Of a stretch of DNA of 64,000 bases, positions 40,353 through 59,607 are shown one piece after another. Within the stretch, counting starts at the first letter, position 1; every line of letters starts with the position of its first letter. The translations under genes were made by a program, and so were the position numbers. Source of the DNA: Candidatus Oxydemutatoraceae bacterium (GTDB lineage Bacteria; Pseudomonadota; Gammaproteobacteria; Poriferisulfidales; Oxydemutatoraceae); NCBI GenBank assembly GCA_965220085.1, contig CBDCOZ010000003.1, positions 1,120,001-1,184,000 of the forward strand, in the 5' to 3' direction. A model generated the notes under the pieces. It was not told where the DNA came from and did no database searches. It saw only the letters and a program-made list of their open reading frames with translations.

Positions 40353-40406
40353 GGTGAGTCAAGTAACATGATTTGACTTCGTGAACTGGCTATACAGTTG
40401 TGTTTG

Positions 40407-43207: not shown

Positions 43208-44488
43208 ATGATGATAAGAAAAATTCATATCACACCAATTAAAAAATTGTCCTTAGGGCTGGGTTGCATGATGATGCTCCTGGTTACATCCGCTTTTGCG
43301 GGGCCTAAGGTTACGCACGAAGTAGTTTTATCCGATTTGAGCAACCCATGGGACATGGCGTTTCTGCCGGATGGAACGATGTTCTTTACCGAGAAATGCG
43401 ACGGGCTGTCCGTGCTCATGCCATCGGGCAATGTAAACAAATTGCTCGGCATGAAAGATTCCAAGGGCTATGCCAGTTCTGCGAACGATCTCTTTTGCGC
43501 GGGTCAAGCGGGCATGCAAGGCGTGGCCGTCGATCCGGATTTCGCAAAGAATCGTCAGATATATGTCTATTCGACATCCGACAAGGCGGCGCCCGGCTCA
43601 AATCGCCTAATGCGCTTCAAAGTGAATGGCAGTTTCACCGGCGTATCCGACCGGACGGACATTATTCCTGATGTTCCGTATAAGCCCAAAGCGACCGAGC
43701 ATCCGTTCGGAGGGCCCGGCGCGCATAACGGCGGTCGTGTCCGCTTTGGACCGGATGGGTATATCTACCAAACGACCGGCGACACGCACAACGGCGTAGT
43801 GCCGCAAAGTCCGACCATGCTGGGCGGCAAGGTGCTCCGAGTTGACCGCGACGGCAAAGCGGCATCCGGCAACAAGCCGCCGAAAGGTTACGACAAGCGC
43901 ATCTATACCTACGGCCATCGCAACGTGCAAGGCATCGCTTTTCGTCCGAGCGACGGAACGCCGGTGGTAGCCGAACACGGCCCCTGGCACACCGATGAAA
44001 TCACGGTGCTCAAAAACGGCGGCAACGCCGGTTGGGACCCGCGTCCCAACATGGCGGGTCGCGGCGATTGTCCGGAAGGTTACTGCGGTTATATGCCGAA
44101 CCAGATGGAAGGCGTAGATCCCAAGGTACGGTCAAAGTTTATGCCGATGACCGACACCAAGACCTACCCCGACGCAATGCGCCCGGCGACTACGAACAAC
44201 GGCCTCTCCCAAGGCATGTCCAGCGCGGAATTCCTGCGCGGCAGCCAGTGGGGCGAATGGGACGGTCGTCTCGCTGTCGGCATTATGGGTATCGGCTTTG
44301 GCGGAACGCCGGTCGGTCAACGCATAGATGTGGTCAAGCTTGCCTCGGACGGCATGTCCGGCGAAGTGACCTCGGTGTCCTTGCCCATGGCGGCCGGTCG
44401 CTTCCGGTCTGTCGTGCAGGGGCCGGATGGCAGCCTGTATGCGGCTGTGGACGAAGGCACAATCTACAAATTAACACCTAAGAAGTAA
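43208..44488 (+). CDS. PQQ-dependent sugar dehydrogenase (glucose/sorbosone DH family)
   Basis: PWDMAFLPDG, HNGGRVRFGPDG, YGHRNVQG, EHGP. Confidence 0.9.
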   Translation: MMIRKIHITPIKKLSLGLGCMMMLLVTSAFAGPKVTHEVVLSDLSNPWDMAFLPDGTMFFTEKCDGLSVLMPSGNVNKLLGMKDSKGYASSANDLFCAGQAGMQGVAVDPDFAKNRQIYVYSTSDKAAPGSNRLMRFKVNGSFTGVSDRTDIIPDVPYKPKATEHPFGGPGAHNGGRVRFGPDGYIYQTTGDTHNGVVPQSPTMLGGKVLRVDRDGKAASGNKPPKGYDKRIYTYGHRNVQGIAFRPSDGTPVVAEHGPWHTDEITVLKNGGNAGWDPRPNMAGRGDCPEGYCGYMPNQMEGVDPKVRSKFMPMTDTKTYPDAMRPATTNNGLSQGMSSAEFLRGSQWGEWDGRLAVGIMGIGFGGTPVGQRIDVVKLASDGMSGEVTSVSLPMAAGRFRSVVQGPDGSLYAAVDEGTIYKLTPKK

Positions 44489-44982: not shown

Positions 44983-45108
44983 TATCAGTATCCGCGCCTG
45001 CGTCCCCGGTTGAAGGGCATCTCCGCTAAGATGGTCGCGCGGCGGCAATCGGATGTGGTTTGCAGGGTCGCACAAGCGATTCCCGGCAGGGTTTTCATGC
45101 CGGATTAA
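44983..45108 (+). pseudogene. Degenerate 3' remnant of the LuxR-type HTH gene
   Basis: TATCAGTATCC...GCGCGGCGGCAATCGGAT...CAAGCGATTCCCGGC aligns with 45476-45602. Confidence 0.7.
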
Positions 45109-45190
45109 GGCTATTTCCCGCTATCTTTGGCATTTTTGCTCGCTACAGTGCCGGCGAATCGCCGTGATATGTGTCAAGTAATTGGCAAAT

Positions 45191-45208
45191 ATACCTCATT
45201 TGGGGTAT
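45191..45208 (+). promoter_or_regulatory. 18-bp palindromic box, copy 1
   Basis: ATACCTCATTTGGGGTAT. Confidence 0.75.
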
Positions 45209-45259
45209 GTCTGGCATGCCATTCTGGCCAGAAACAACAAGCATCGATTCTAGGCAAAT

Positions 45260-45304
45260 ATACCCCATTTGAGGGATATACAGCATGCCACAGAAACATA
45301 CCAT
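45260..45304 (+). promoter_or_regulatory. 18-bp box copy 2 with -10 hexamer
   Basis: ATACCCCATTTGAGGGAT-21 bp-TACCAT upstream of the HTH gene. Confidence 0.75.
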
Positions 45305-45332
45305 TAAAGACATAGCATACGGAAAAACCCAT

Positions 45333-45602
45333 ATGTCAGAAGAAGTAATAGATTTAACCAAGGAAGCTGCCAGTGAGCACCTGATTCGTATGTACGGCCT
45401 GACCAAAGCCGAAGCACGTCTCGCATTGGAAGTGACCGGAGGGCTGTTGCTGAAGGAGATTTCAGCAAGACGCAATATCAGTATCCATACTCTGCGCACC
45501 CACTTGAAGAGTATCTTCGTTAAGATGAAGGCGCGGCGGCAATCAGATATGGTGCGCAAAGTCATGCAAGCGACTTCCGGCGGGATTTTCAAGTCGGACT
45601 AA
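45333..45602 (+). CDS. Stand-alone LuxR-type HTH transcriptional regulator
   Basis: YGLTKAEARLA...KEIS..RNISIHTLRTHLKSIF.K...RRQSDMV; no sensor domain. Confidence 0.85.
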   Translation: MSEEVIDLTKEAASEHLIRMYGLTKAEARLALEVTGGLLLKEISARRNISIHTLRTHLKSIFVKMKARRQSDMVRKVMQATSGGIFKSD

Positions 45603-45828
45603 GAACTGCTGTTTATTGTCTGGCGTTGAAACTTGCCCGGCGACAAGCGCCGGCAGATGCCGAGGTATGTCCGGTGTGGTCGCAATGGCGGAAGAACTTT
45701 GCGATCGCTACGGTGCGCCGGCGGATGCCGAGATGTGGTCAAGCAACCGGGAGATTTGCCAACGATGGAAGTTGTGATCGACGGCTTGAACGCGCGATGC
45801 CGAGATATGCGTCAGGTAATTGGGAAAT

Positions 45829-45874
45829 ATACCCCATTTGGGTGATGTCCGGGCAGGCGGAGAAGGTATATCAT
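45829..45874 (+). promoter_or_regulatory. 18-bp box copy 3 with -10 hexamer
   Basis: ATACCCCATTTGGGTGAT-22 bp-TATCAT upstream of haloperoxidase 1. Confidence 0.8.
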
Positions 45875-46011
45875 GAAAAACATAGCCTAAGTACATTTGA
45901 GCTTGGGAGGAGGCGCGCCGGACAATGGCAATATCTGAATATTTAACTGCTATACCGAGCCAGGCTAGAAACCCTGCTCTTACTAATTTATCTTATCGGA
46001 GGTAAAAAATT

Positions 46012-47916
46012 ATGAAAGATCGTCAACAAGCAACTTTTGATTTCCGTGTGAATGCCGCCAAGCTTGCTCGGGATCGTAACCATCCTGAGCACAGAGCAAA
46101 CGGCGAGGAACAACGATACGCAGGCGCAAACTATGCGATGAGCTTCACCAAAGGACTGAAGCATAACCGTAAAACCGGACTTATCTGTGACCCGACGCAT
46201 TTTGAGGCTTTCCGCAAAGCCATAGATGATGCTTTTATAGATCCCTTCACGCTCAATGTGCCGGTAGCTCCGGAGAAAAGAAGAGGTTGGGAAGCGCCGA
46301 CGGCCGGGGTAGCACACGATCTTGAAGGTCCCGATGCCCAAGCGGTGACTATGCCGCCGGCTCCGGAACTTGGTTCAAAAGAGCTCGCTTATGAGATGGC
46401 CGAAGTTTATGAGATGGCCTTGCTCCGAGACAATCCGTTGACTCAATTTCAAACACCAGCCGGAAACCCGCCACCGCCACCGCCAGTTGCGGCCACAATC
46501 GGTCGATTGAATGGTATTGATTATGCGATTGATGGCAGCGAAGGTCGCCCCCGAAAGAACACGAAAGGCGCATTGGATGAGCAGACCCTTTTCCGAGGCT
46601 CTTCGCCGGGTGTTGAGGCCGGGCCCTACTTGTCGCAATTTCTGCTAATTGGCGGCGGATGTTTGGAAGAAGATGTCGAAAGCGGGATGATTGATTATGG
46701 CGCTAATAGCATTGATCAGAGGGTTCCCGTAGCAAGCAAAGAGGATTATATGACCGAGAAAGATGATTACATTGATGTCCAAAATGGCGCAAATCCTTGT
46801 TTCGATAACGGTTGCGAATGCGATGATGCGGATGACAAATCATGCGGGTGCGGCAATGCCGAAGACGGGTGCAACGATGATTGCCGTTGCAGTAATCCAT
46901 GTGTGTGTGATCCTTGCTTGCGCGGGGATTGTCTTGGCGTAACGCTTGACCCGGACGCAAACCCGAAACGTCGTTTTATTTCAACTCCGCGTGATTTGGC
47001 AACCTATGTGCACGTTGATGCTCTGTATCAGGCCTATCTCAATGCGTGCATTATCTTGCTGAACAGCAAAGTGCCGTTTGACCCGGGGTTTGGCGCATTG
47101 TCCGGACAAGCGCCGCTATACCATTTGGGCTCTAAGAACCGGCGGCAGGCAGAAGGCTTTGCGCTCTACGGCGGCCCGCATGTATTGACTTTGGTGACCG
47201 AGGTGGCGACTCGTGCGCTTAAAGCAGTGCGCTATCAGAAGTTTAATAACCATTTGCGCTTGCGCCCGGAAGCATTGGCGGCGCGCATTCACTACAGAGA
47301 GAATATTCGTAAGAAAGTTTGCCCTGATTTTGGTAAGAAACTGACTACAGACTTGTACGCGCGTATTGGAGGTACGGTAGCAGCAATTTCCGGTCAGTCT
47401 GGGACTGAATTATTACCCATGGCTTTCAAAGAAGGTTCGCCGATGCATCCATCCTATGGCGCCGGACATGCTACCGTAGCCGGAGCCTGTGTCACCGTGC
47501 TAAAAGCATTTTTTGATACGAGCACAGTCTTCGTCAAAAGGAAAGTTAAATCGAAATCAGAGCCAGAGGAAGCAAGCACAGTAGTCGCTTTTCGCCGGTG
47601 CAAACGCGGCGACGAGCCCATAGCGTACACCTCAGACTTCAACATTGGTAAAGGAGTTGGAAATGAATTGGTGGAATCAAATCCTGATAAATTCCTCACG
47701 TTGGAAGGGGAGTTAAACAAGTTGGCCGCCAATATTTCTATTGCGCGCAACATGGCGGGTGTGCATTATTTTTCTGACTACTATGACAGCGTGCGTATGG
47801 GCGAGGAAATTGCCATTGGCATACTAGAAGAGCAAGCGCTTGGTTACCCGACCGACCGTTTTGTGATGTCGTTGACTACATTTGACGGCCGCTCCATACG
47901 CATCGGACGACGGTAA
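46012..47916 (+). CDS. Vanadium-dependent haloperoxidase 1
   Basis: QKFNNHLRLRPE, GSPMHPSYGAGHA, ARNMAGVHYFSD; RDLATYVHVDALYQAY. Confidence 0.9.
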   Translation: MKDRQQATFDFRVNAAKLARDRNHPEHRANGEEQRYAGANYAMSFTKGLKHNRKTGLICDPTHFEAFRKAIDDAFIDPFTLNVPVAPEKRRGWEAPTAGVAHDLEGPDAQAVTMPPAPELGSKELAYEMAEVYEMALLRDNPLTQFQTPAGNPPPPPPVAATIGRLNGIDYAIDGSEGRPRKNTKGALDEQTLFRGSSPGVEAGPYLSQFLLIGGGCLEEDVESGMIDYGANSIDQRVPVASKEDYMTEKDDYIDVQNGANPCFDNGCECDDADDKSCGCGNAEDGCNDDCRCSNPCVCDPCLRGDCLGVTLDPDANPKRRFISTPRDLATYVHVDALYQAYLNACIILLNSKVPFDPGFGALSGQAPLYHLGSKNRRQAEGFALYGGPHVLTLVTEVATRALKAVRYQKFNNHLRLRPEALAARIHYRENIRKKVCPDFGKKLTTDLYARIGGTVAAISGQSGTELLPMAFKEGSPMHPSYGAGHATVAGACVTVLKAFFDTSTVFVKRKVKSKSEPEEASTVVAFRRCKRGDEPIAYTSDFNIGKGVGNELVESNPDKFLTLEGELNKLAANISIARNMAGVHYFSDYYDSVRMGEEIAIGILEEQALGYPTDRFVMSLTTFDGRSIRIGRR

Positions 47917-47978
47917 GCAGCACTGAAAAAACCAAATGAAAAAATTATTTCTTATAACAAACAAATCTGGAGACTAAC

Positions 47979-49079
47979 ATGAAAAAATTATTTTTTATTG
48001 GCCTATCTTTTGTCGCCCTGTTGCTGATGACAGCATCAGTGTCGGCTGAACACCTATGCAGAGGAGGTTGCGCATGCCTCGCTAGTAACCCCCTGTGTGA
48101 ACCTTCTTGCGATAACGATGTAAATTGTGTCTTCCGTGGCCATGAAGGCGGCGGCAACGGCAGCGGAGGCGGCGGCGGCAACGGTAGCGGAGGCGGCGAA
48201 GATTTCGTCGAGTGCCGAGCGCCTGCTGTGAACCACTCCGGTACTACATTCGTCGACTTTTACCAAAATTGCGAAGACTGCCGCAACAATCATGGTGGCA
48301 TATGCCAACCATTTGGTGACCGCAGTTGCCCGACCGGCTTCTCTCCGATTGAAGTGAGTCCAGGCACCTCCCGCCATTGCGTAACCAGCGCCGGCGGTGT
48401 CGAGGGCGACTACTGCCTGCAAGATGTCAGTAATAGAATTGAAGTTGTATCCGGTTACTCTTGCCATCAATGCCGCACCCTGTTTGACGGCAGCTGCCGC
48501 ACAAGCCAAAGTTGCCCCGCCGGCTACAGTAGAGATGAGAGCGTCACCGGCTTCTTTTGCACCCGTGGCGGCGGTAGCGGCGGAGGCGGTGGCGGCGGTA
48601 ACGATACCCACCCGCATCGCAATAGCGCAAGCCAACTGCAAATAGGAAGGAGCGCCTCAGGATCTGTCTCGATGCCGGGGGATGTCAATTACACCCGTGT
48701 CACACTGTCTAGGCGGATGTTTGTTACTATTCAAACCACCGGCGGAACTGACACAGTGGGACGACTGGAAAACAGTTCGGGCGGAGTGTTGATTACTAAC
48801 GATGACGGTGGCTCAACCCCTAATTTCAGCATTAGCGGAGTTCTTGAGCCAGGTACTTACTACATCAGAGTTTCAGGCTATGAGAATACGACAGGCAATT
48901 ACATGCTGACCACAACTGGCCGCGAACCCCGTGATGGTGATCCGGTCATCAGTAGCAGCGGCGGCGGCGGAGGCGGCGGCGGAGGCGCTCTGTCACTGGC
49001 CGCGTTGCTCGCGCTGTTGAGTCTTGTCGCGGTTGCGGCGATGCATCGTCGCGCAAGTCTTTTGCGCAGACAACCTTGA
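47979..49079 (+). CDS. Secreted Cys-rich protein with PPC-like domain and GlyGly-CTERM
   Basis: Signal peptide, Cys-rich modules with Gly linkers, NDDGG..NF.I...LEPGTYYI, poly-G/TM/RR tail. Confidence 0.8.
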   Translation: MKKLFFIGLSFVALLLMTASVSAEHLCRGGCACLASNPLCEPSCDNDVNCVFRGHEGGGNGSGGGGGNGSGGGEDFVECRAPAVNHSGTTFVDFYQNCEDCRNNHGGICQPFGDRSCPTGFSPIEVSPGTSRHCVTSAGGVEGDYCLQDVSNRIEVVSGYSCHQCRTLFDGSCRTSQSCPAGYSRDESVTGFFCTRGGGSGGGGGGGNDTHPHRNSASQLQIGRSASGSVSMPGDVNYTRVTLSRRMFVTIQTTGGTDTVGRLENSSGGVLITNDDGGSTPNFSISGVLEPGTYYIRVSGYENTTGNYMLTTTGREPRDGDPVISSSGGGGGGGGGALSLAALLALLSLVAVAAMHRRASLLRRQP

Positions 49080-49188
49080 TACCGCTCTGTAGAGGATATG
49101 ACAAATATAATTAAGAGAGACGAAAGCAAACCATACTCTTAACCCTCTGAGTAAGAAACAGTCAGATACTCTGATTGGTTGTGCCCTG

Positions 49189-49220
49189 AGCCACGGTACC
49201 GCCGGTGCCGTGGCTTTTTT
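49189..49220 (+). terminator. Intrinsic terminator
   Basis: AGCCACGGTACC-GCC-GGTGCCGTGGCT plus T-run. Confidence 0.8.
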
Positions 49221-49351
49221 ATGTTGCGAGATCCGCTATCCGCAAAGCGCAGAACAGCAATAAGGAAACCGGACTATTGTCTCTGGCGTTGGAACTTGCC
49301 CGCAACAGGTGCTAACGGGTGTCAAGATTATGTATCAGGCAACCGGGAAAT

Positions 49352-49396
49352 ATACCCCATTTGGGGGATGTACAACATGTGGCGGAAGTGTAGTAT
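49352..49396 (+). promoter_or_regulatory. 18-bp box copy 4 with -10 hexamer
   Basis: ATACCCCATTTGGGGGAT-21 bp-TAGTAT. Confidence 0.8.
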
Positions 49397-49436
49397 CTAC
49401 TGAAACATAAATATTAATTAAGGGAAGGCTTTTCAA

Positions 49437-51383
49437 ATGAACTTACGAAATAGATATTGTGTTAAGCGAGGGAAATTGCTGAGGCTATTCATTCCATCGT
49501 TCAGATGTAGTTTTAACAGTCGGGCGAGACTTTGCTGGCTATTGTTAGCGTGTTCGCTTTTTATGACTGCGTGTGGTTGGAGCTACAAAGATGAAGGGGC
49601 AATTGACTATCGCAAAGCTGAGATTTTAGTTAAGGATGGGAAAGCCATACTTGAACCTACCGCTTTCACGAACAAACCATCACAACCGCGTAATGAACAG
49701 CCGCGTAACGAACAACATGAGCTCATCCGTGTCGCGCGTCTGGACCGAAAAAATGTGTTACATGATAGCAGTGAAACAAAATTTTCTGATGACGACGCAA
49801 TTTGTATAAGACTTATATCTGCTTATATCGAGGAATATTCAGAAGGCCCACTCAGTATAGTAGGGGATGCTTTCTTTAAAGGACAATTCCGACCAAGAGG
49901 GGAAATTGCTGTTGTTGTCAATGCTTTTAAGATTACAGATGAAAAGAGTTTTGACTTTAGCGATGACAGTATAAATGAGGGGAAAATAGTTTTTTACTCT
50001 GATGATGTTGTTGAAGGGCAATTTCTAAATTTTAACAATATGCCTATTTATGGCCCCTACTCCGTCGATAAAATGAGAGGCATGGGTTTGGAGATATGGA
50101 TTATGGAGTTGGATATACAAGATGCGCTAACCGGCAAACTACTTGAGACCATAGCCGCACAAAGAGGGAAAGGAGTACTCACTGCATTGCCCGGGCATAC
50201 TATCTTGGAATCTTTAGGGAGCACTTTAATAAATTCTGTTAATACTGATAATTCTAATGACACCGATTTTCTCTATCGAGTTTTATTGGAACGCAAAGAA
50301 AACGCAATACTGCCGTATCCCGCTTTGGAGGTTGGGCATTATGTGTTTATTCGTGCCCCTCGAGGTAACGAAATATCCGGAATGCCTCTGGAACTTCCAG
50401 CTATCGAAGATATCAAAGATATCAGAAATATACTGGAAACCAAAGATATCAATTGGGCAAATTTGCGCCTTGATGAAAATACTGGACGATTATATAAAGC
50501 AGAGTGTGAGGACAATAACAACGATGTCGGAAAGGGTGCCAAAGATAGTCAGGAGAATAATAATAACAATGTGTCCGGAAAGAATGCCAAAGATAGTCAG
50601 GAGAATAATAACAACAATGTGTCCGGAAAGAGTGCCAAAGGTAGTCAGGAGAATAACAACAACAATGTGTCCGGAAAGAGTGCCAAAGGTAGCCAGGAGA
50701 ATAACAACAACAATAAGCCCGGAAATGGCGCCAAAGATAGTCAGAAAGGTAGTAAGAAAGGTGACAGCAAATGCAAATACCGAGAGTTCACAGATTATAA
50801 TTACTTAGTTATTAAGATTGACAAAGGTTCGGGCGACAATTTAAGTATCGTAAATAAAGCCTATGGTGATTTCACACGAGCTTTAAAAGCATCGGAGCTT
50901 AAGCGCAGTCGTAAAATCATAGATCGGGTTAACTTGAATGCGAGATTATCTGACCTTAAAGAGAAGTTTAGAAAGTATCGTAAAGATCATAAAGACAAGG
51001 CTGTTGATAATAAAGCTGATCTGGTGGCCTCCTTTAAACTTCTGTGGGCGGATATTCAGCCCTCTATAATGCAACATCGGTCGCCTAATAATCAAGCGGC
51101 GGTTGAACCTCCGGACTTTACGCGACGAGAATTAGAGGAGGTTGCCATTGAATTAGAGAGACAGATGGTCAAGACCTGTACCCCTAATGGCGACACTACT
51201 TCTAGTGGCAATAGTAGTCCGTACGATTGGTTTCCCTCTACACAGGAGACGCGTACCGAAACTGAGATTATCGACGCTATCAAAAATATCGAAACTAAAA
51301 TAGTTAAGCATATAAACGCCTGCATGCCGGTCAGCAGCAAACCTTCTTCAATCTCCACAAATTCTTCCCAAACAGGCAGTTAA
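49437..51383 (+). CDS. Hypothetical lipoprotein with Asn-rich tandem repeats
   Basis: Lipobox-like MTAC; 648 aa; start codon uncertain. Confidence 0.7.
   Translation: MNLRNRYCVKRGKLLRLFIPSFRCSFNSRARLCWLLLACSLFMTACGWSYKDEGAIDYRKAEILVKDGKAILEPTAFTNKPSQPRNEQPRNEQHELIRVARLDRKNVLHDSSETKFSDDDAICIRLISAYIEEYSEGPLSIVGDAFFKGQFRPRGEIAVVVNAFKITDEKSFDFSDDSINEGKIVFYSDDVVEGQFLNFNNMPIYGPYSVDKMRGMGLEIWIMELDIQDALTGKLLETIAAQRGKGVLTALPGHTILESLGSTLINSVNTDNSNDTDFLYRVLLERKENAILPYPALEVGHYVFIRAPRGNEISGMPLELPAIEDIKDIRNILETKDINWANLRLDENTGRLYKAECEDNNNDVGKGAKDSQENNNNNVSGKNAKDSQENNNNNVSGKSAKGSQENNNNNVSGKSAKGSQENNNNNKPGNGAKDSQKGSKKGDSKCKYREFTDYNYLVIKIDKGSGDNLSIVNKAYGDFTRALKASELKRSRKIIDRVNLNARLSDLKEKFRKYRKDHKDKAVDNKADLVASFKLLWADIQPSIMQHRSPNNQAAVEPPDFTRRELEEVAIELERQMVKTCTPNGDTTSSGNSSPYDWFPSTQETRTETEIIDAIKNIETKIVKHINACMPVSSKPSSISTNSSQTGS
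50508..50745 (+). repeat. 48-bp coding tandem repeat (AKDSQENNNNNVSGKx)
   Basis: 4-5 copies of a 16-aa unit. Confidence 0.85.
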
Positions 51384-51424
51384 AGCGTTCATTTCGTGTG
51401 TGTTGACAATCAGTCGAAGGAGAA

Positions 51425-53515
51425 ATGAAAAAATTACTTTTGGTCATCCTGTTGCTGGGAGCGGCATCAGTGTGGGCAAACCCCATGACTGTGCCCCAGG
51501 ATGTGTTAACCATAGCCCAAGCCAATGACCCCGAACCGGATCCTTTGCGTTTGCGTTTGCGCGTATTCTTGGAAGGCCCCTTGCGAGGCGGCTCGTCTTC
51601 GGCCGGGGATCCCCGAACGGGGTCGCGAAGTGATGCGCGCGCACTAGCGCTGGGAAGAAACGTATCAGGAACTATCCAACCGGGCATTACCCATTACTAC
51701 CGTTTTACGCTGTCTTCGCGCGCACTGGTTGGTATTGGAACCACCGGCATGACTGACACCATCCTGCGATTGGAAAACAATGCGGGCACAGTGTTAGCTG
51801 AGAGTGGTAATATTAATATCGGAGGCGCAAACATCAGAATTGTTCGCACTCTTGAACCAGGCACCTATTACATAGCCGTTGCGGGCGTTGCTCCTTCAAC
51901 AACGGGAAGTTACACTCTGGTTCCAACAGCATTATCAACAACCGGACTTCCCCCGAAATTGGGAACAAGAATCTCAGGGACTATCCAACCAGGCATTGTC
52001 GATGCCTACGAATTTACGCTGGATAGGCGCTCAGAGGTTATTCTTGAAACCACTAGCACAATTGACACAGCCGGAATATTGGCAGACGGTATGGGCACAG
52101 TGTTAGCTACGGCCGATGACATTGATCGTAGTGGCGGAAACCTAAATTTCAGAATTAATGAGATTCTTAACGCAGGCACTTATTACATATCCGTTAGGGG
52201 CTTTGCTCCTGACACAACAGGAAGTTACACTCTGCTTAGAACCACAATACCCGTACTAACATTCGGTCTCTCCGAAGAAGGGGATATCTCACCGGAAGGG
52301 GATGTCGATGAATGGTCATTTGCGCTATCTGAGCGCTCAGAGGTTACTATTGAAACCGTTGCCAGTACTCCTTACACATTCGGACGCTTGCTACGCAGTG
52401 ATGGCTCAGTGTTGGCTGATAGTGATGATTTCTCCTCTAATGCTTTTTCTGGCGGAGCCCGTGTTAACGGAAACAAGAATTTCAGCATTACTCAGACTCT
52501 TGAAGCAGGCTCTTATTACATGCGGGTTTCGGCTTGCTGGCAGCGATTCCGCGACGGAGATTGTGACCGGTCTATAGCACAAGGAAGTTACGCTTTGTTT
52601 GCGACCGCCATACCCGCACTAAGCTCGATAGACAGGGCAGAAGAGGCTATCTCACCGGCAGGGGATGTCGATAGATACCAATTTATTCTGTCTTCGCGCT
52701 CAGAGGTTGTTATTCAAACCACCGGCATGACTGACACATTCGGACGATTGGAAAACAGCATGGGCACAGAGTTGGCTACGAGTGATGATATTAGCAAGGA
52801 TGACGAAAATTTCAGAATTACTCGCACTCTTGAAGCAGGCACTTATTACATAGAAGTTAGCGGTCATGATTCTGACGAAACAGGAAGTTACATTGTGTTT
52901 ATAGACACAATACCCGCACTAACATTGGGAGAAAGCGCATCCGGGGATATCTCACCGACAGGGGATCGCGATCGCTACCAATTTGCCCTGTCTTCGCGCG
53001 CGGAGGTTACTTTTGAAACCACCGGCATGACTGACATAATTGGAACATTGTTTGACAGTCGCTTCAACGAGTTGGCTGAGGATGCTGATATTAGCGGCGA
53101 AAACCTAAATTTCAGAATTACTCAGACTCTTGCAGCAGGCACTTATTACATATGGGTTGAGGGTGAGCGCGGAGCAACAGGAACTTACACTCTGATTACA
53201 AAAGGAGAACTCGTGCTAATATTGGGAGAAAGCGTATCAGGGGTTATCTCCCCGGCAGGGGATGTCGATAGGTACCGATTTACGCTGTCTTCGCGCACAC
53301 AGGTTACTTTTGAAACCACCGGCTCAACTGACACATTCGGAAGGTTGTATGACAGTGAGGACACACAGTTGACTAGTAATGATGACAGTGGCCCAGGATA
53401 TAATTTCAGAATTGTTCGCACTCTTGCAGCGGGCACTTATTACATAACCGTTGAGGAACATGGTAATAACAGCACAGGAAGTTATACTTTGATTACGACC
53501 ACAGCAACACCGTGA
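51425..53515 (+). CDS. Secreted protein with N-terminal LRLRLRVFLEGPLR and six PPC-like beta-sandwich repeats
   Basis: Signal peptide; six ~100-aa repeats G.ISP.GD.D.Y.F...TD..G.L...NF.I...L.AGTYYI. Confidence 0.85.
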   Translation: MKKLLLVILLLGAASVWANPMTVPQDVLTIAQANDPEPDPLRLRLRVFLEGPLRGGSSSAGDPRTGSRSDARALALGRNVSGTIQPGITHYYRFTLSSRALVGIGTTGMTDTILRLENNAGTVLAESGNINIGGANIRIVRTLEPGTYYIAVAGVAPSTTGSYTLVPTALSTTGLPPKLGTRISGTIQPGIVDAYEFTLDRRSEVILETTSTIDTAGILADGMGTVLATADDIDRSGGNLNFRINEILNAGTYYISVRGFAPDTTGSYTLLRTTIPVLTFGLSEEGDISPEGDVDEWSFALSERSEVTIETVASTPYTFGRLLRSDGSVLADSDDFSSNAFSGGARVNGNKNFSITQTLEAGSYYMRVSACWQRFRDGDCDRSIAQGSYALFATAIPALSSIDRAEEAISPAGDVDRYQFILSSRSEVVIQTTGMTDTFGRLENSMGTELATSDDISKDDENFRITRTLEAGTYYIEVSGHDSDETGSYIVFIDTIPALTLGESASGDISPTGDRDRYQFALSSRAEVTFETTGMTDIIGTLFDSRFNELAEDADISGENLNFRITQTLAAGTYYIWVEGERGATGTYTLITKGELVLILGESVSGVISPAGDVDRYRFTLSSRTQVTFETTGSTDTFGRLYDSEDTQLTSNDDSGPGYNFRIVRTLAAGTYYITVEEHGNNSTGSYTLITTTATP

Positions 53516-53578
53516 TCGTATTACAGTAAATGTAGTCTTGTAACCGCCGGAGGCCTGAGGTGCAAAGTGCCAAAAGGG

Positions 53579-53749
53579 GTGACCAAAGGGCTGTCGCCGA
53601 AGGAAGTTTCAGAAGAGCGCTATGTCAGTATCCATGCCTTGCGTACCTAGTTGAAGAGCGCCTTCGCTGAGATGGGCGCACGGCGGCAATCGGATGTAGT
53701 GCACAGGGTCATGCAAGCGATTCCCTGCAATATTCTCACGCCGAATTGA
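53579..53749 (+). pseudogene. Second degenerate LuxR-type HTH remnant
   Basis: VTKGLSPKEVSEERYVSIHALRT*LKSAFAEMGARRQSDVVHRVMQA matches the 45333 protein, with an internal stop. Confidence 0.8.
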
Positions 53750-53832
53750 GATATTCCCTATTGTTTCTAGTCTTGGAGTTTGTCCGCTACAGTGTCGGCG
53801 GAGCCGAGGTATGTGTCAGGCAACCGGGAAAT

Positions 53833-53878
53833 ATACCCCATTTGGGTGATAGACGAGCATGCACAGAAGGTATAGCAT
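53833..53878 (+). promoter_or_regulatory. 18-bp box copy 5 with -10 hexamer
   Basis: ATACCCCATTTGGGTGAT-22 bp-TAGCAT upstream of haloperoxidase 2. Confidence 0.8.
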
Positions 53879-53972
53879 CAAAAGTATGGCTAAGCATATT
53901 AACGCTAAGCTTAGTTTTATGAGTGGTAGTTTAGAGTACTAAACTGTTATAGCAATTGAGAGGAGAGAAAAG

Positions 53973-55820
53973 ATGAACAGATTTAATCGGTTTCGCCGCA
54001 AAGAAGCTTTCGCAGTCAGAACAGATGCCGCAGAAATGGCATCATCGCGTCCGCATCCGAGACACATAGCTAATGACGATGAACATCGTTACCCATGTTA
54101 TCCGGCCAGCTTCACCAAAGGGATGCCACACGACTATGATACCGGGCTGATTAGTAACCCTCAGGTGTTTGTAGATTTCATAAAGGCAATTGATAGCGGA
54201 GACCCAAGGGACTTTAAAGATGTCGCATTGGGTCCCAGTGGCGGAAAGTGTAAGCGCTCCTATAAGGAATGTAAGTGTCATGTTACTGAGGAATGGGAAT
54301 CTAAGATAGCGCAGTGCCTGCCTAAGTGCGAAAGGAAAGGAAAAGAGGCAAAGGTTAGGGCATGGGAAAGCCAAAGTGCTGGAAATGCCTTTGACTTGGA
54401 GGGGCCAGATGCCCAATCAGTGACTATGCCTCCGGCACCCGCTCTCGACAGTGATGAGTTAGTTGCGGAAATGGCTGAGGTTTATGCTCAGGCTCTGCTA
54501 CGGGACTATTCTTTTGAGGATATAGATAATGTTATAGGTGGTGTTGCACCCCCACCCAATCCTTGTGCAAAGGGGGACAATGTGCCACCGATTAAGGAGG
54601 TAATTGACTGCTTAAAGGATTTGGAGTTTTATAACAAGGTATCGAAATGTTGCAAGAAAGGCGCGAATAATAGGAATAGATTCAGGGGGAATACCTATGG
54701 TGATGATGTGGGGCCTTATATTTCACAATTCCTGTTAATAGGTAACACGGGCCTTAATAGGTGTGACAAAGAACCTGACAGGGACCAAGATTCTGACAGG
54801 AGTGAGGCATCGGGGCGTATCGCTTTCGGAGCCTTGGACATTGATCAACGCGTACGTGTTGCCGAACCCTGTAAAGACTATATGACGACATGGAATGAAT
54901 GGTTTGACGTTCAGCAAGGGGCGGATGTGAGAGGCCAAGAGGATTATGCTAATAAACCGCCGCGCAGATTTATTGCCACCCCACGAGACTTGGCAACCTA
55001 TGTGCATTATGACGCTCTATATCAGGCGTACTTGAATGCATGTTTAATTATGCTGGGCTCAGGAGTTCCTTTTGATCCGGGCATCCCATTTCAGGAAGAA
55101 GACTGCATTGATCACCAGCAGGGGTTTGCCCTGTTCGGCCCGCCACATATATTGACTTTGGTTACCGAAGTGGCTACTCGTGCTCTGAAAGCTGTGCGTT
55201 TCCAGAAATTTAATGTTCACCGCAGAATGCGACCGGAAGTTTTGGCAGCAAGGTTACACAATAGCGATGCAGTAGATAAAAAATTAGAACGACAATTAGA
55301 ACGAAAATCAGTAGAGAAAGTTACATTATTCGGCGATATGGCTGAGGAACCAGGACTGAAGTGTATCCTCGGATTAATCAATGGGAAGAACGGGGGTGCG
55401 CCAGGAGGAGCAAATTACCTATTGCCAATGGCCTACCCGGAAGGTTCTCCCATGCACCCGTCTTACGGTGCGGGGCATGCCACTGTGGCAGGAGCATGTG
55501 TCACCATCCTCAAAGCTTTCTTTGATACCAAGGCTGTTATACCGCAGGCATACATACCCAATCCTGCAGCTGGTTATACGACTTTAATACCAGACCCTAA
55601 AAATCCTTTGTTGACCGTTGAAGGGGAGCTTAACAAACTTGCTTCAAATATTTCCATTGGGCGCAACTGGGCAGGTGTTCACTTTTATAGTGATTACATT
55701 GAGTCAATCAGGTTGGGAGAACAAATTGCGATTGGTATCCTTGAGGAACAAAAGCTGACATACCATGAAAATTTCTCAATGACAGTTCCTCTATTTGATG
55801 GTGGCGCTATCAGGATATAA
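53973..55820 (+). CDS. Vanadium-dependent haloperoxidase 2
   Basis: QKFNVHRRMRPE, GSPMHPSYGAGHA, GRNWAGVHFYSD. Confidence 0.92.
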   Translation: MNRFNRFRRKEAFAVRTDAAEMASSRPHPRHIANDDEHRYPCYPASFTKGMPHDYDTGLISNPQVFVDFIKAIDSGDPRDFKDVALGPSGGKCKRSYKECKCHVTEEWESKIAQCLPKCERKGKEAKVRAWESQSAGNAFDLEGPDAQSVTMPPAPALDSDELVAEMAEVYAQALLRDYSFEDIDNVIGGVAPPPNPCAKGDNVPPIKEVIDCLKDLEFYNKVSKCCKKGANNRNRFRGNTYGDDVGPYISQFLLIGNTGLNRCDKEPDRDQDSDRSEASGRIAFGALDIDQRVRVAEPCKDYMTTWNEWFDVQQGADVRGQEDYANKPPRRFIATPRDLATYVHYDALYQAYLNACLIMLGSGVPFDPGIPFQEEDCIDHQQGFALFGPPHILTLVTEVATRALKAVRFQKFNVHRRMRPEVLAARLHNSDAVDKKLERQLERKSVEKVTLFGDMAEEPGLKCILGLINGKNGGAPGGANYLLPMAYPEGSPMHPSYGAGHATVAGACVTILKAFFDTKAVIPQAYIPNPAAGYTTLIPDPKNPLLTVEGELNKLASNISIGRNWAGVHFYSDYIESIRLGEQIAIGILEEQKLTYHENFSMTVPLFDGGAIRI

Positions 55821-55826
55821 GATTAA

Positions 55827-56795
55827 ATGCCGACTGAAAAAATGTTCAATCATAAAAAGAGAAGCGGGTTCTTCAGGTGCACACTGTTAGTTTTCGTAGT
55901 GGGCCTACAAGGCGGGTGCGCCTCATGGATTGGTAGTGACGAAGCTAATTTAGCGAAAGATGGTCCTGAACCAATATTTGATTCAGAGTCACTAGAGACC
56001 TACAAAGAAGATCAGAATAAGGCATACGATACCTTTGAGGAAATAGTTAGGAAGAGGGGTAATGCTAACCCTAGTGCTGACGATGTTATTTCAGCAGGGA
56101 TGCAGTACGCAGATGCTAGATGTTCTGAATATCTAGAGTCACTGTACTGGGTTGATAAACAACTAAAAGCTGACATAAAGGATGCTAATGCGGCAGGGAC
56201 ATTAGCCTCGGGTGTGCTGGGTGCCACGAAAGCGGCAGCTAAGGAAATAGCAAGTGTCGCAGTTTTGTTTGGATACCGTGAGGATGTTCTTAATAATGCC
56301 GGAAGTAGAGTGCTATTTGATCTTGATCCATCTACTATTCAATCACTGGTTGAACGTAGCCAAAAAGTATTTAGGGAGCGGTTGAAATCTGGGTATAAAA
56401 AAGCGGACGCTCTCTCAGTTATCAGAGAGTATGATACCCTTTGCTCATCCTCAAGGATAGAAGCAGAGGTTAATGACACTATGAAGAAGGTTGATCTAGT
56501 GGCAACAGAAGGAGATGTCGAGAAAGGTGAACCGCCCAAGGTTTCAGTCGATGACCCTAGAATCCACACCTATGGCTCTGATATTAATAGCTTGTTACTT
56601 GAATCGTATGCGTTCCCTGGAAACGAGAAGAACGATGCCGCGCATAAAGCATTGAAAGAGTGGATGGAAAAAGAAGGCATCGATATTCCAGTCGCGGTTT
56701 TTTTGATGTCTAGCGAACACAAGCCCAAATGGGAAAAAGCAGTTGACTACCTGTACAAACACGGTAATCCAAAATTGAAGGTGATTCCAAATTGA
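55827..56795 (+). CDS. Hypothetical lipoprotein
   Basis: Hydrophobic leader with GGC; 6 bp after haloperoxidase 2. Confidence 0.7.
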   Translation: MPTEKMFNHKKRSGFFRCTLLVFVVGLQGGCASWIGSDEANLAKDGPEPIFDSESLETYKEDQNKAYDTFEEIVRKRGNANPSADDVISAGMQYADARCSEYLESLYWVDKQLKADIKDANAAGTLASGVLGATKAAAKEIASVAVLFGYREDVLNNAGSRVLFDLDPSTIQSLVERSQKVFRERLKSGYKKADALSVIREYDTLCSSSRIEAEVNDTMKKVDLVATEGDVEKGEPPKVSVDDPRIHTYGSDINSLLLESYAFPGNEKNDAAHKALKEWMEKEGIDIPVAVFLMSSEHKPKWEKAVDYLYKHGNPKLKVIPN

Positions 56796-56811
56796 AATAG
56801 GAGGTGAAGAT

Positions 56812-56955
56812 ATGCCTAGTCATGAAATTAAAAATGTGCCTGAGTCGAAATTAATTGGGGGGATAAAAAACCTGCTTCAAGACGGCGCAATTGAAGTCTG
56901 TGTTAGGAAGCAATCTGACGGCACTTACACCATTAAGGCAGCATATCCTAGTTAA
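56812..56955 (+). CDS. 47-aa small protein (paralog of 42556)
   Basis: AGGAGGT RBS; MPSHEIKNVPESKLIGGIKNLLQDGAIEVCVRKQSDGTYTIKAAYPS. Confidence 0.7.
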   Translation: MPSHEIKNVPESKLIGGIKNLLQDGAIEVCVRKQSDGTYTIKAAYPS

Positions 56956-57112
56956 GTTTGCATAATAAGGGTGCTGTGCCCGAAGCGATAAGTTTATCGT
57001 GATGGAGGCGCTATCGCTGGGTTGTGCCTCCCGCATGATTGATACGCTGCCGAAGTCGTACTCCCCGGATCATGCCCGTGGACATGCTTTTTAAGTTTGT
57101 TATACGGAGGAA

Positions 57113-57308
57113 TGCCCGACGCTCACTGATGAAGAAATACGAAGGGTAAAGAATCCTAAGAGATACGGGGAGCTGTCCTGAAAGTGTTGTTCATAAGGGT
57201 GAGCATTACGCAATAGTTGAGATGAAATGGGATGGAAATCCCTGTTACGGTATCCATTGGTTTAACACTATTAAGGAATAGTTACCCACATTCACATGGT
57301 GATTCAAC
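57113..57308 (+). pseudogene. Frameshifted copy of the 59642 hypothetical gene
   Basis: HYAIVEMKW, GIHWF, YPHSHGDS fragments match 59642-60040. Confidence 0.7.
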
Positions 57309-57317
57309 TTTCTAAAA

Positions 57318-57685
57318 TAGATCGGGTTAACTTGCGTATAAGGTTATCTGACCTTAAAGAGAAGTTTAGAAAGTATCGTAAAGACAAGGATGATGATAGA
57401 TCTGATTTAGTGGCCTCCTTTAAACTTCTGTGGGCGGATATTGAACCCTCTATACTGCAACATCGATTGCCTAATAATCAAGCGGCGATTGAACCTCCGG
57501 CTTTTACGCGACGAGAATTAGAGGAGGTTGCCATTGAATTAGAGAGGCAGATGGTCAAGACCTGTACCCCCCCTGGTGCCGGTACTAATCTGTACAATTG
57601 GTTTGCCTCTATGGAGCCGCATACCATCGAAACTGGTATAGTTACTCGTATAAACAGCCAATCGTGCCGTAATGCGCCTTCCTAA
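57318..57685 (+). pseudogene. Duplicated C-terminal fragment of the 49437 lipoprotein
   Basis: IDRVNL...LSDLKEKFRKYRKD...FTRRELEEVAIELERQMVKTCTP near-identical. Confidence 0.85.
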
Positions 57686-57789
57686 ATAGGTTTGTCTGGC
57701 ACAGGTTGTGCGCTACAAGAATGCAACAGGGGAATTGCGAGGATGATGCCGATAATGCTCGTTAATTCCCCGGTTGGTCCCAGTCAATA

Positions 57790-57906
57790 ATCGTCGGATA
57801 GATTATCTGCTATGGTTTAACACCCAACGACCACACTACGGACTAAAGCTTCGGGTGCTCATGACCCACAACATTTGCCCATGTCCGACATGTCTTGGCA
57901 TCCTAC
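57790..57906 (+). mobile_element. IS481-like transposase 3' remnant with right end
   Basis: DYLLWFNTQRPHYGL and terminal TGTCCGACATGTCTTGGCATCCTACA. Confidence 0.5.
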
Positions 57907-57987
57907 ATATTCTTTATGCTCTCTGGCGTTGGAATTTGCCGGCGACAGTATCGGCGGATGCCGATATGTGTCAAGCAACCGGGAAAT

Positions 57988-58033
57988 ATACCCCATTTGG
58001 GTGATGTCTGACATGCGGAGAAGGATATATCAT
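57988..58033 (+). promoter_or_regulatory. 18-bp box copy 6 with -10 hexamer
   Basis: ATACCCCATTTGGGTGAT-22 bp-TATCAT upstream of TraT-like copy 2. Confidence 0.8.
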
Positions 58034-58119
58034 AAAAAGATAACATATAGAAAAATCTATATATCAGAGAATGTAATGAATTTAACTAAAAGGAGGTAAA
58101 GACAGTATATTCTTTCAAA

Positions 58120-59058
58120 ATGCTCACTTATAAAAATATCAAGAGTATTTTTCTGACATTAATCGTGTGTGCTTTGTTGGCCGGCTGTGCCAGCGAGCCC
58201 CGCTATTCACAAGCGGCGATGCAGAAACGAACCGCGACAGGCGTTGCCATAAAACCCAGCGAGACCGGGCGCGCAATGACCCCGTCTGTGGAATATATCC
58301 GCGTAAAAATGGAAAGGAGCATCTTCCTAGACCCGCCGGAAGGCAATGCGAATACCTACGTGCGTGTTCGTGACACTTCCGGACGGAACTGGGGGATCGA
58401 ATTGGAAAAAGTGGTAGCGCAAGAGCTGAACAGACGAGGGTTTAGGGCGGTAAAAGATGCCACGAACGCGGCTTATGCCATCAATGTCAATGTGCTGTTT
58501 GTGGATGAAGCATCGGCAGCTGAGATTGCCCAACTGGATGAGACGGAGTATGGCCAAAGCCTCTCCGGACTGGTTGGTTCCACCCTAGTCGGCGCCGTTG
58601 CCGGCGGCGTCGGGGGAGGGATGATCGACGACGGAGGCCTTGGCGGTGTGGCCGTAGGCACCGTAGTAGGAGCGGCCGCCGGCGGACTGGCGAATACGCT
58701 CTACAGTGACAGTCGAGACGAACTGATCAAAGCACAACAGGAAACAAAGTTCTTTTCTGTGGTAGCCGACATCGAGGTACGCGAGAGAATCAAGAGCGGC
58801 ATCATCAAGCGAACGCACAAGACTGCCCGGCAAACGAAAAAGAAAGCCGGGTCCAGCGGTGACCTTGTCGATAACAGAGATTCCGGAGGACAAACAGTAA
58901 CACAGGCGAGCACGGAAGTCGCCGAGGGGGAGACGAGCAACTGGAAGCGACACCAAACCCGAATGACCGGCAAGGCAAAAGGCAAGCTGGTTGTCTTCGA
59001 AGATGTTCAAGGTGACTTTGCCATGAAGATGGCAAGATCATTAGCGGGGTTAATCTAA
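58120..59058 (+). CDS. TraT-like outer membrane lipoprotein, copy 2
   Basis: Close paralog of 27892-28833. Confidence 0.75.
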   Translation: MLTYKNIKSIFLTLIVCALLAGCASEPRYSQAAMQKRTATGVAIKPSETGRAMTPSVEYIRVKMERSIFLDPPEGNANTYVRVRDTSGRNWGIELEKVVAQELNRRGFRAVKDATNAAYAINVNVLFVDEASAAEIAQLDETEYGQSLSGLVGSTLVGAVAGGVGGGMIDDGGLGGVAVGTVVGAAAGGLANTLYSDSRDELIKAQQETKFFSVVADIEVRERIKSGIIKRTHKTARQTKKKAGSSGDLVDNRDSGGQTVTQASTEVAEGETSNWKRHQTRMTGKAKGKLVVFEDVQGDFAMKMARSLAGLI

Positions 59059-59059
59059 G

Positions 59060-59497
59060 ATGAAAAATCATACAAAAAATTCTCTTGCGCTGTTGTGCGC
59101 AGTCTCGATCTTCGTCTGTGTCGGTTGCAGCGCTCAGGCTTACAAGCAGATATCATGGACACATCCCTCCGGCAACGATTGGGATATAGACTCTGCTATT
59201 TGCTTGCAACATTCGGGTACGCTGACCGCAGCCGATCAAGCGGAGATAAAAAGGATTGAAGCATCCGCAAAAAGCGACAAGCAATCCGCGCAGGTCATGG
59301 CGGATACTTACCAGATTGGCGAAACTATGCAGTCATTGCAAGGTGTGCCGGTTGATGAAGATTTGGGCTTAGCTATGGATGTTGTGACCGGAGCGCTTTC
59401 TTTTGTGGCGTCTGCTGAGGAACAAACTGCCACAGAAGTAGTCAAGAAAAATAAGTTTGCTGCCTGTATGAGAAACAGAGGGTGGAGTGAAATTTAA
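59060..59497 (+). CDS. Hypothetical lipoprotein partner, copy 2
   Basis: Close paralog of 28845-29267. Confidence 0.75.
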   Translation: MKNHTKNSLALLCAVSIFVCVGCSAQAYKQISWTHPSGNDWDIDSAICLQHSGTLTAADQAEIKRIEASAKSDKQSAQVMADTYQIGETMQSLQGVPVDEDLGLAMDVVTGALSFVASAEEQTATEVVKKNKFAACMRNRGWSEI

Positions 59498-59576
59498 GTC
59501 GTGTAAGCAGCGGCTGACAAAGTTGCCGGTAAAAAGCTTAAAGCGTAAGCTTGTACTGTCGGACAGACTAACTTGC

Positions 59577-59607
59577 AACCGCCGCGCTTCGGTGCGGCGG
59601 TTTTTTT
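59577..59607 (+). terminator. Intrinsic terminator
   Basis: AACCGCCGCGC-TTCG-GTGCGGCGGTT plus T-run. Confidence 0.85.

Follow-up and report, generated by a model that had tools for sequence, protein, structure and literature searches.

In one study (PMC4549865), NarL output domains are described as binding inverted heptamers separated by 2 bp, an engineered high-affinity site reads TACCCCTAAAGGGGTA, a 7-2-7 site at -40 to -49 allows full activation of napF by the isolated C-terminal domain of NarL, and a 7-2-7 site at -38 to -47 activates yeaR. A comparable arrangement is found in a 64,000-nucleotide stretch (hereafter the window) of the genome of a Candidatus Oxydemutatoraceae bacterium (contig CBDCOZ010000003.1, positions 1,120,001 to 1,184,000), in which six palindromic boxes lie upstream of a small helix-turn-helix (HTH) gene of the LuxR/GerE type and of four gene units that include two genes for vanadium-dependent haloperoxidase (VHPO) homologues. 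The boxes are probably operators of these LuxR-type proteins at activator-dependent promoters. The best explanation of the whole, to which we assign a probability of roughly 0.6, is that a full-length, sensor-bearing paralogue encoded on another contig of the same genome (C1) provides the input, that the small HTH protein is an accessory, and that the regulon is not self-contained.

Systems in which a LuxR-type regulator is paired with a 7-2-7 operator near -43 are of a known kind. Compared with NarL and NarP of E. coli, the engineered site agrees with the idealised box at 12 of 14 heptamer positions; however, heptamer position 7 is A in the box and T in the NarL site, the right arm of the box is degenerate, and a search with Pfam Response_reg detects no receiver domain in the small HTH protein or the C1 regulator, and no histidine kinase is implied. 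The NarL heptamer consensus is TACYYMT, a form that does not appear in the text of the NarL paper. GerE of Bacillus subtilis resembles the small HTH protein in consisting of little more than a four-helix DNA-binding domain, whereas the stand-alone form described here, which lacks orthologues, appears to have arisen recently when a sensor-bearing paralogue was truncated. The C1 regulator resembles the LuxR solos (VqsR, SdiA, CviR and RhlR) and VqmA in that its predicted structure joins alpha/beta domains of the ligand-binding type to a C-terminal LuxR HTH, and no luxI-type partner is implied; it differs in having two tandem PAS/GAF-like domains and a long helix, with a length of approximately 380 amino acids (aa) versus approximately 240. 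An N-terminally deleted LuxR-family protein can be a signal-independent DNA-binding activator, and the truncation considered here differs in being apparently natural, in having arisen by duplication, and in having its own putative operator.

When 3 mismatches are allowed, ATACCYCATTTGRGKRAT has 8 matches on the two strands of the window, whereas 100 shuffled sequences give a mean of 0.37 and a maximum of 2, with none of the 100 reaching 8. Six of the matches are the boxes listed in Table 1, which confirms their number and positions as given in the preliminary description; the other two are the reverse reading of the box at 45191 and a site with 3 mismatches at 3608, which is taken as a chance match. 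Each box is a NarL-style 7-2-7 imperfect inverted repeat, TACCCCA-TT-TGGGKRA, in which two inverted heptamers are separated by 2 bp. The arms are complementary at 6 of 7 positions in Box 1 (TACCTCA-TT-TGGGGTA) and in Box 4, and at 5 of 7 in boxes 3, 5 and 6 (TACCCCA-TT-TGGGTGA). In the 2.49-Mb genome, the 17-mer AATATACCYCATTTGRG occurs at the six window sites only, and a scan with TACCCCANNTGGGGTA at up to 2 mismatches returns 11 sites, which are the six boxes and 5 copies of one other repeat family. Genome-wide, the exact core is confined to the window, but a diverged seventh box is present outside it, on contig C1.

A repeated cassette of approximately 135 bp has the box as its core, and the conservation of the box stands out from that of the surrounding DNA: the 23 nucleotides (nt) GGGAAATATACCCCATTTGGGKG are identical or nearly so across boxes 3 to 6, whereas the cassette flanks are only about 60-80% alike. 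Synonymous divergence among the regulator copies is approximately 0.36-0.43. Equal conservation of the box and of the duplicated flanks had been named as the outcome that would count against a regulatory role; the box is clearly better conserved, and this comparison thus favors the box.

The spacing of the boxes to a -10-like TAnnAT hexamer was also measured as claimed, the hexamer starting 21 bp (boxes 2 and 4) or 22 bp (boxes 3, 5 and 6) after the box, with a background frequency of TAnnAT in the window of 0.0024 per position; no such hexamer is present 21-22 bp downstream of Box 1. Assuming that transcription starts 7 nt past the hexamer, the predicted box centre falls at -42.5 or -43.5 in five of the six window boxes and also in the C1 box, and the box sits where a class II activator site would be expected (predicted centre near -43, compared with -41.5). 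The starts predicted in this way for boxes 2 to 6 are near 45311, 45881, 49403, 53885 and 58040. No sigma-70-like -35/-10 pair is scored at any box on the + strand by a consensus promoter scan. Taken as a LuxR-type operator at about -43, the box has good in silico support. Other readings of the same DNA were considered and rejected. The conserved TGGCGTTGGAAYTTGC upstream of the boxes was read as a sigma-54 promoter, but its GG-to-GC spacing is one base too long for the sigma-54 consensus. In a reading as a promoter for an extracytoplasmic-function sigma factor (GGAAAT...GTC), the segment that would serve as spacer is conserved more than any other part, and the putative -10 is variable. The operators of the CsoR/RcnR family are C/G-run palindromes too, and no PF02583 protein is present in the genome.

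The small HTH protein matches Pfam GerE (PF00196) with 27.4 bits against a cut-off of 23.5 (27.8 bits in a whole-genome scan, in which it is the only match). Its AlphaFold2 (AF2) model, with a pLDDT of 84.9, contains helices at residues 25-35, 40-47, 51-65 and 70-84, which correspond to the four GerE helices. A Foldseek search gives target-normalised template-modelling (TM) scores of 0.78-0.85 to the DNA-binding domains of VraR, LiaR, NarL, DosR and GerE, including a TM score of 0.82 and a root-mean-square deviation (rmsd) of 1.4 Å with the NarL C-terminal domain (1je8) and a TM score of 0.78 and an rmsd of 1.2 Å with GerE (1fse), although the E-values are weak (at least 0.017), the domain being small. 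An alternative ATG at 45285, which would give an open reading frame (ORF) of 105 aa, lies within the conserved CATGC of the promoter spacer and upstream of the predicted transcription start at approximately 45311; the reading of 89 aa from 45333 in the preliminary description is therefore sensible, and we agree with it. Autoregulation of the gene, proposed at the same time, is plausible, given that it has its own box and -10-like hexamer.

From the -10 hexamer to approximately 30 nt past the ATG at 45333, the DNA shows homology to the leader that precedes the coding sequence of the traT unit and is not translated (global alignment with 56 identities in 103 aligned positions; mean of 100 shuffles 41.9, standard deviation 5.7), whereas homology to the regulator gene starts only at about codon 16. 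Together, these observations indicate that a cassette leader was fused to the last approximately 75 codons of a regulator gene. By this sequence evidence, the small HTH gene is a chimera of approximately 10 leader-derived codons and the last approximately 75 codons of a full-length regulator, a truncated copy and not an ancestral sensor-less regulator; two more decayed copies precede boxes 1 and 5.

The full-length relative is encoded on contig C1 by a 424-aa ORF (378 aa in the protein database), and its last approximately 100 residues are 53-55% identical to the small HTH protein. The seventh box, TTAACCCATTTGGGTGAT at C1:23754, is located 89 bp past the stop codon of this ORF within the same flanking cassette, with a TACCAT hexamer 21 bp downstream, and is followed by a gene for a PPC protein whose N-terminus matches that of the 696-aa PPC protein of the window. 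The AF2 model of the C1 regulator (pLDDT 85.3) consists of two alpha/beta PAS/GAF-like domains, a long connecting helix and an HTH. The top Foldseek matches are the VqsR ligand-binding domain, VqmA, CviR, RhlR, SdiA and phytochrome PAS-GAF, of which the VqsR domain (5xhx) ranks first with a target-normalised TM score of 0.63-0.67; the query-normalised TM scores to the VqsR, CviR, RhlR and SdiA domains are just about 0.3, and there is no match to Pfam PF03472. The HTH of the C1 regulator does not reach E 0.01 with Pfam but scores 88 bits with a local GerE hidden Markov model (HMM). Its relatives in the protein database are approximately 380 aa long and at most 29% identical, some of them named [quoted passage not shown], and a single-protein query of metagenome contigs returned no relative.

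When the local GerE HMM is run against all 33,995 stop-to-stop ORFs of at least 40 aa in the genome, only the small HTH protein, the C1 regulator and two relics are detected. Because these are the only GerE-type domains of the genome, and two of the four are decayed fragments, the candidates for binding the boxes are the small HTH protein and the C1 regulator. The existence of a sensor-bearing, full-length paralogue with a seventh box and a paralogous PPC gene speaks against the earlier view of the regulon as self-contained.

The anatomy of the cassettes suggests how the boxes reached their present positions. Upstream of the box, the cassette runs into DNA that elsewhere comes after the stop codon of a LuxR-type gene, and two relics of such genes are retained. 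Relic 1 precedes box 1 and is 56% identical to the small HTH protein over 36 aa (tblastn; repeat family D10; E 0.2 with the local GerE HMM), whereas relic 2, which precedes box 5, differs from the C1 tail at 3 of the 10 family-conserved positions that it covers. Between the small HTH gene and box 3, two copies of the upstream half of the cassette are present, in which the box has been deleted (copy A) or has decayed (copy B, which spans 45701-45786, the decayed box being at approximately 45741-45758). The cassettes before VHPO1 and VHPO2 share 80% DNA identity (repeat D16), whereas the two VHPOs share 42% protein identity, and the other two cargo cassettes head unrelated genes. The cassette is therefore younger than the genes, and the sequences indicate that it was pasted before them, taking along pieces of the 3' end of the regulator gene. 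The occurrence of two boxes before the HTH gene, as first described, is real; as a feature of design it does not hold up, being a by-product of nested duplication in which box 1 lacks a -10 hexamer. An integron-like gene-cassette array was considered and rejected, in that the repeat lies upstream of the genes and itself carries -10-like hexamers and the three PF00589 matches of the genome are far from the window.

The pairing of box and regulator was also followed in other genomes. A scan for the exact 18-mer in 596 Gb of genomes returns 74 loci, mostly chance matches or unrelated conserved DNA. A GerE-type gene is carried by 6 of the 74, and in all six a GerE gene ends 15-56 bp from the box. 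With a 22-nt box pattern, 10 loci are found in metagenome contigs, and a GerE-type ORF is present in 7 of them. Some of the adjoining regulators are NarL-type response regulators (Balneola-like, Anaerolineae and Gallionella-like), and those of loci L044, L045/L110/L111 and L102 are members of the PAS-LuxR subfamily that also includes the small HTH protein and the C1 regulator. The recognition helices of the box-linked PAS-LuxR proteins are similar to each other (S-x-H-T-x-R-T/S-H/Q-L). Additionally, 27 loci (97.7 kb, two unpublished genomes being excluded from the counts) around distant homologues of the C1 regulator within the same class contain 9 box-like sites with up to 3 mismatches, compared with 2.2-2.7 expected (Poisson P about 0.002), and several of these sites share the core CCCATTTGG and are located just after or just before the regulator gene. 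Among 60 relatives searched, one (G005) has a homologue of the regulator, which is 35% identical and adjoins a VHPO gene whose product is 57% identical to VHPO2.

At the preferred reading's promoters, a dimer of GerE-type domains would bind the 7-2-7 box approximately 42-43 bp upstream of the implied start, in a class II arrangement that lacks a recognisable -35 element. The C1 regulator (378-424 aa), with its tandem PAS/GAF-like domains of the ligand-binding type, would be the input, and the small HTH protein would be an accessory that either activates without a signal or competes for the boxes. The regulon would have grown as the cassette, comprising the 3' end of the regulator gene, the sequence that follows the stop codon of that gene, the box and the -10 hexamer, was copied before unrelated genes, its targets being two VHPOs that have diverged from each other, lipoproteins, PPC proteins and a TraT-like protein. 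The analysis shows the anatomy of the sequence, the history of copying, the co-occurrence across genomes and the predicted folds; from these we infer binding, activation, the start sites, a ligand and the acting protein.

Several observations weigh against this reading. A search for RNA runs containing positions 45000-54900 of the window found none. The cassettes are copies of each other, and their shared spacing and -10 hexamers are not independent evidence. The right arms of the boxes are imperfect, TGGGTGA agreeing with the left arm at just 5 of 7 positions. In other phyla, some of the palindromic matches are not close to any GerE gene, the exact box was not found in 40 relatives, and the G005 locus has no box-like site at up to 3 mismatches and only two poor matches at up to 4. 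The C1 box differs from the six window boxes at two left-arm positions (TTAAC versus ATACC), and the recognition helix of the C1 regulator differs from that of the small HTH protein (N for H, A for T and Q for H), which suggests that the two proteins may use different sites. The remaining points concern the small HTH gene. Over 56 codons, its ratio of lineage-specific nonsynonymous to synonymous changes (N:S) is 16:5, which is closer to that of pseudogene relic 2 (15:6) than to that of the C1 gene (8:6), and the gene could therefore be drifting. Its dN/dS relative to the C1 gene is 0.45-0.64, its ribosome-binding site is weak (GGAA, 11 nt upstream), and a search of the proteins of 57-184 aa in a database of 5.8 billion proteins gave no short homologue.

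On the other side, the small HTH protein differs from the C1 tail at only 1 of 10 family-conserved positions, compared with 22 of 46 others (one-sided Fisher P 0.028), and box 2 and the -10 hexamer of its gene are intact, while the geneless copies of the cassette have decayed. The evidence that the small HTH protein is functional is mixed, and, on the strength of its model and its conserved positions, it likely still folds and binds DNA.

Two alternatives differ from the preferred reading in which of the two proteins acts. In the first, the 89-aa HTH protein acts as sole master regulator, the island being self-contained, positively autoregulated and possibly bistable, and the C1 protein forms a separate circuit of one gene. 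This is unlikely, even though the retained GerE fold and family-conserved positions and the gene's own box and -10 hexamer are compatible with it. The recognition helix of the small HTH protein, SIHTLRTHLK, resembles the box-associated helices SYHTARTQLK, TLHTVRSQLR and SAHTARTHLK found elsewhere, whereas N takes the place of the H in the C1 protein, whose box differs in the left arm. This co-variation of helix and box (H with ATACC in the island, N with TTAAC on C1) argues for separate specificities more strongly than any other observation, but only one such case is available. The isolated C-terminal domain of NarL, as reported in the NarL study (PMC4549865), fully activates from a 7-2-7 site near -44. 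However, the small HTH gene is apparently a recent chimera: its N-terminus derives from a leader, its ribosome-binding site is weak, and its substitution pattern is like that of a pseudogene copy. Moreover, the cassettes derive from the junction that follows a regulator gene, and the C1 target is paralogous to a cargo gene of the window, which ties the two loci together.

In the second, all seven boxes are served by the full-length C1 regulator alone, and the small HTH ORF is a relic that is still open. The similarity of its N:S to that of relic 2, the lack of short orthologues and the weak ribosome-binding site agree with this, and an 89-codon relic at this divergence would stay open with a chance of approximately 0.2 by a rough estimate. 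We nevertheless regard it as improbable, as the conserved positions have been selectively kept in the small HTH protein and not in the relics, and box 2 with its -10 hexamer has survived where geneless cassettes decayed.

A bolder variant keeps both proteins and gives them successive roles, a trigger and a latch: the ligand-sensing C1 receptor would switch on the cassettes, among them the one that drives its truncated paralogue, and this paralogue would then bind the same 7-2-7 boxes and sustain itself, the VHPOs and the surface set after the signal has gone. A heritable ON state would result, in an uncultured and probably host-associated bacterium, from a recent assembly in which cassettes of regulator tail, operator and -10 hexamer were pasted before unrelated genes. 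We consider this version decidedly unlikely; if it were true, a regulon and its feedback loop could arise from junction duplications alone.

It is very unlikely that the box is not regulatory and has been conserved through recent copying or gene conversion, or that it is a recombination or insertion site that spreads the cassettes. The whole cassette of approximately 135 bp is indeed repeated, gene relics adjoin it, and a remnant resembling an insertion sequence (IS) is present at 57774-57850. However, conservation peaks sharply at the box and not in the flanks, geneless copies have lost the box, the same box abuts GerE-type genes in unrelated genomes, and the genome's three tyrosine-recombinase matches are all far from the window. 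A role of the palindrome in RNA, as a hairpin of the shared leader, is scarcely credible: a 7-bp stem closed by a 4-nt loop is conceivable at box 1, but the right arm GGGTGAT in boxes 3, 5 and 6 breaks 2 of the 7 pairs while the left arm stays invariant and does not compensate, the -10-like hexamer comes after the box, and no Rfam family matches the box region or the other loci scanned.

Returning to the C1 protein as input and the small HTH protein as accessory, this reading, if it is true, would bear on regulon growth, haloperoxidases and annotation. The steps of regulon growth could be read directly, as a promoter cassette with its operator was copied before unrelated genes and one copy created a new sensor-less regulator. 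Vanadium haloperoxidases would be tied to a ligand-sensing LuxR-type receptor, a tie seen in two genera, and this would give a testable hint of the circumstances in which bacteria turn to halogenation chemistry and alter their surface proteins at the same time. Reactive halogen species are the products of these enzymes, which have been connected in published work with the destruction of quorum-sensing signals. The pairing of operator and regulator recurs in environmental Gallionella-like, Balneola-like and other genomes, and many loci could be annotated at once. Our literature search found no report of LuxR-type control of vanadium-dependent haloperoxidases, and a search by sequence strings found the operator sequence in no relevant paper, with one unrelated match. 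What appears to be new is the pairing of this subfamily with this operator, which by the searches made is not in print, and its link to haloperoxidases, together with the natural truncation that gave a stand-alone HTH protein with its own operator and the legible copy-and-paste history of the cassettes.

The features of the locus are listed in Table 1. One box stands at the head of each of the four cargo units, whose structure is as first described. VHPO1 is closely related to the vanadium bromoperoxidases of Acaryochloris (5lpc) and Corallina (1qhb and 1up8), with E-values of 1e-102 to 1e-110; a phmmer search against sequences of the Protein Data Bank gives 1.5e-110 for 5lpc and 6.4e-106 for 1qhb. 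VHPO1 and VHPO2 both contain the KxxxxxxRP, PxYxSGHA-like and RxxxGxHxxxD motifs, and VHPO1, which also carries a Cys-rich insert, is assigned as a vanadium-dependent haloperoxidase homologue from its similarity to the solved enzymes together with these vanadate-binding motifs. The other cargo proteins have PPC domains, a TraT domain, lipobox-like signal peptides, or a C-terminal tail composed of a Gly-run, a hydrophobic segment and an Arg-rich segment. The tail of this kind belongs to the product of 47979-49079, and a rhombosortase gene is found in the genome.

Table 1. Boxes, genes and gene remnants of the locus, in coordinates of the window
Feature	Position	Strand	Remarks
Relic 1	44998-45105	+	Last 36 codons of a LuxR-type regulator gene; no start codon, no HTH core
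Box 1	45191..45208	+	1 mismatch; ATACCTCATTTGGGGTAT; best palindrome of the six; no -10-like hexamer downstream
Box 2	45260..45277	+	0 mismatches; promoter cassette of the small HTH gene; TACCAT at 45299-45304
Small LuxR/GerE-type HTH gene	45333-45602	+	89 aa; boxes 1 and 2 upstream
Decayed half-cassettes A and B	45603-45786	+	Two copies of the upstream half of the cassette; neither heads a gene
Box 3	45829..45846	+	0 mismatches; TATCAT at 45869-45874
Unit 1: VHPO1	46012-47916	+	After box 3; vanadium-dependent haloperoxidase homologue, 634 aa
Unit 1: secreted Cys/Gly-rich protein	47979-49079	+	One PPC domain (Pfam); GlyGly-CTERM-like tail
Unit 1: terminator	49188-49216	+	Strong hairpin resembling an intrinsic terminator
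Box 4	49352..49369	+	0 mismatches; TAGTAT at 49391-49396
Unit 2: putative lipoprotein	49437-51383	+	After box 4; 648 aa; 48-bp coding repeats
Unit 2: secreted protein	51425-53515	+	696 aa; 5 PPC domains
Relic 2	53579-53746	+	Last 56 codons of a regulator gene; in-frame TAG
Box 5	53833..53850	+	0 mismatches; TAGCAT at 53873-53878
Unit 3: VHPO2	53973-55820	+	After box 5; 615 aa
Unit 3: putative lipoprotein	55827-56795	+	322 aa
Unit 3: 47-aa ORF		+	After the 322-aa lipoprotein gene; unit span 53973-56955
Lipoprotein-gene relic	57296-57685	+	Duplicates the 3' end of the gene for the 648-aa lipoprotein (repeat D11; 89% identical in nt)
Box 6	57988..58005	+	0 mismatches; TATCAT at 58028-58033
Unit 4: TraT-like lipoprotein	58120-59058	+	After box 6; 312 aa; Pfam TraT E 1.7e-30
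Unit 4: putative lipoprotein	59060-59497	+	145 aa
Unit 4: terminator	59577-59602	+	Strong terminator-like hairpin

Within the cargo genes, the 648-aa lipoprotein gene contains 4-5 tandem 48-bp coding repeats (NNNNVSGK.AK.SQE) at 50514-50753 (D7). The peptide LRLRLRVFLEGPLRGG directly follows the signal peptides of the PPC proteins encoded downstream of box 4 (51515-51590) and of the C1 box (L020 7960-8030). Between the lipoprotein-gene relic and box 6, a short ORF ending in ...NNRRIDYLLWFNTQRPHYGLKL is present at 57774-57850, which we take to resemble the C-terminal end of an IS3/IS481-type transposase.

Two other palindromes were noted outside the window. A copy of the palindrome that is better still than the boxes, with 1 mismatch to the ideal, TACCCCATTTGAGGTA, occurs in another repeat family at C3:99336, 109446, 671648, 671865 and 672081 (L021, L022). 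This family comes after gene ends encoding ...RLRLRLFLEGPLR-stop, and at C3:671.6-672.1 kb it forms three tandem units of approximately 217 bp upstream of a glutaredoxin-like gene. Counting the central TT, approximately 0.06 such sites would be expected by chance (a rough estimate), and the same regulators might bind here as well, unless the resemblance is a coincidence. In G005, a perfect AT-rich 7-2-7 palindrome, TAGTTAAAATTAACTA, is located at L027 14375-14390, upstream of an operon that ends with the VHPO gene and the regulator homologue; as a candidate operator of the diverged G005 regulator it was given no weight, such palindromes being common in AT-rich spacers.

Elsewhere in the window, a 111-bp repeat (D20, 83% identity) at 40776-40886 and 43204-43314 spans the 5' ends of the genes for a trypsin-like protease (40929-42551) and a glucose/sorbosone dehydrogenase (43208-44488), including upstream DNA, and contains no box. 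A lone 23S rRNA gene occupies 37060-40187, with a match of 3128 nt to a model of 2925 positions, and no 16S, 5S or tRNA gene was found elsewhere in the 64-kb window. The 23S rRNA gene is followed by 18-bp repeats (TGTTTGCGGACTGTTAAT-like) at 40239-40616 (D12/D18). Tandem arrays of 2 x 235 bp (D8, 95%) and 4 x 245 bp (D1, 87-99%) are located at 61307-61776 and 62443-63477, in and around the region of a FecCD transporter gene.

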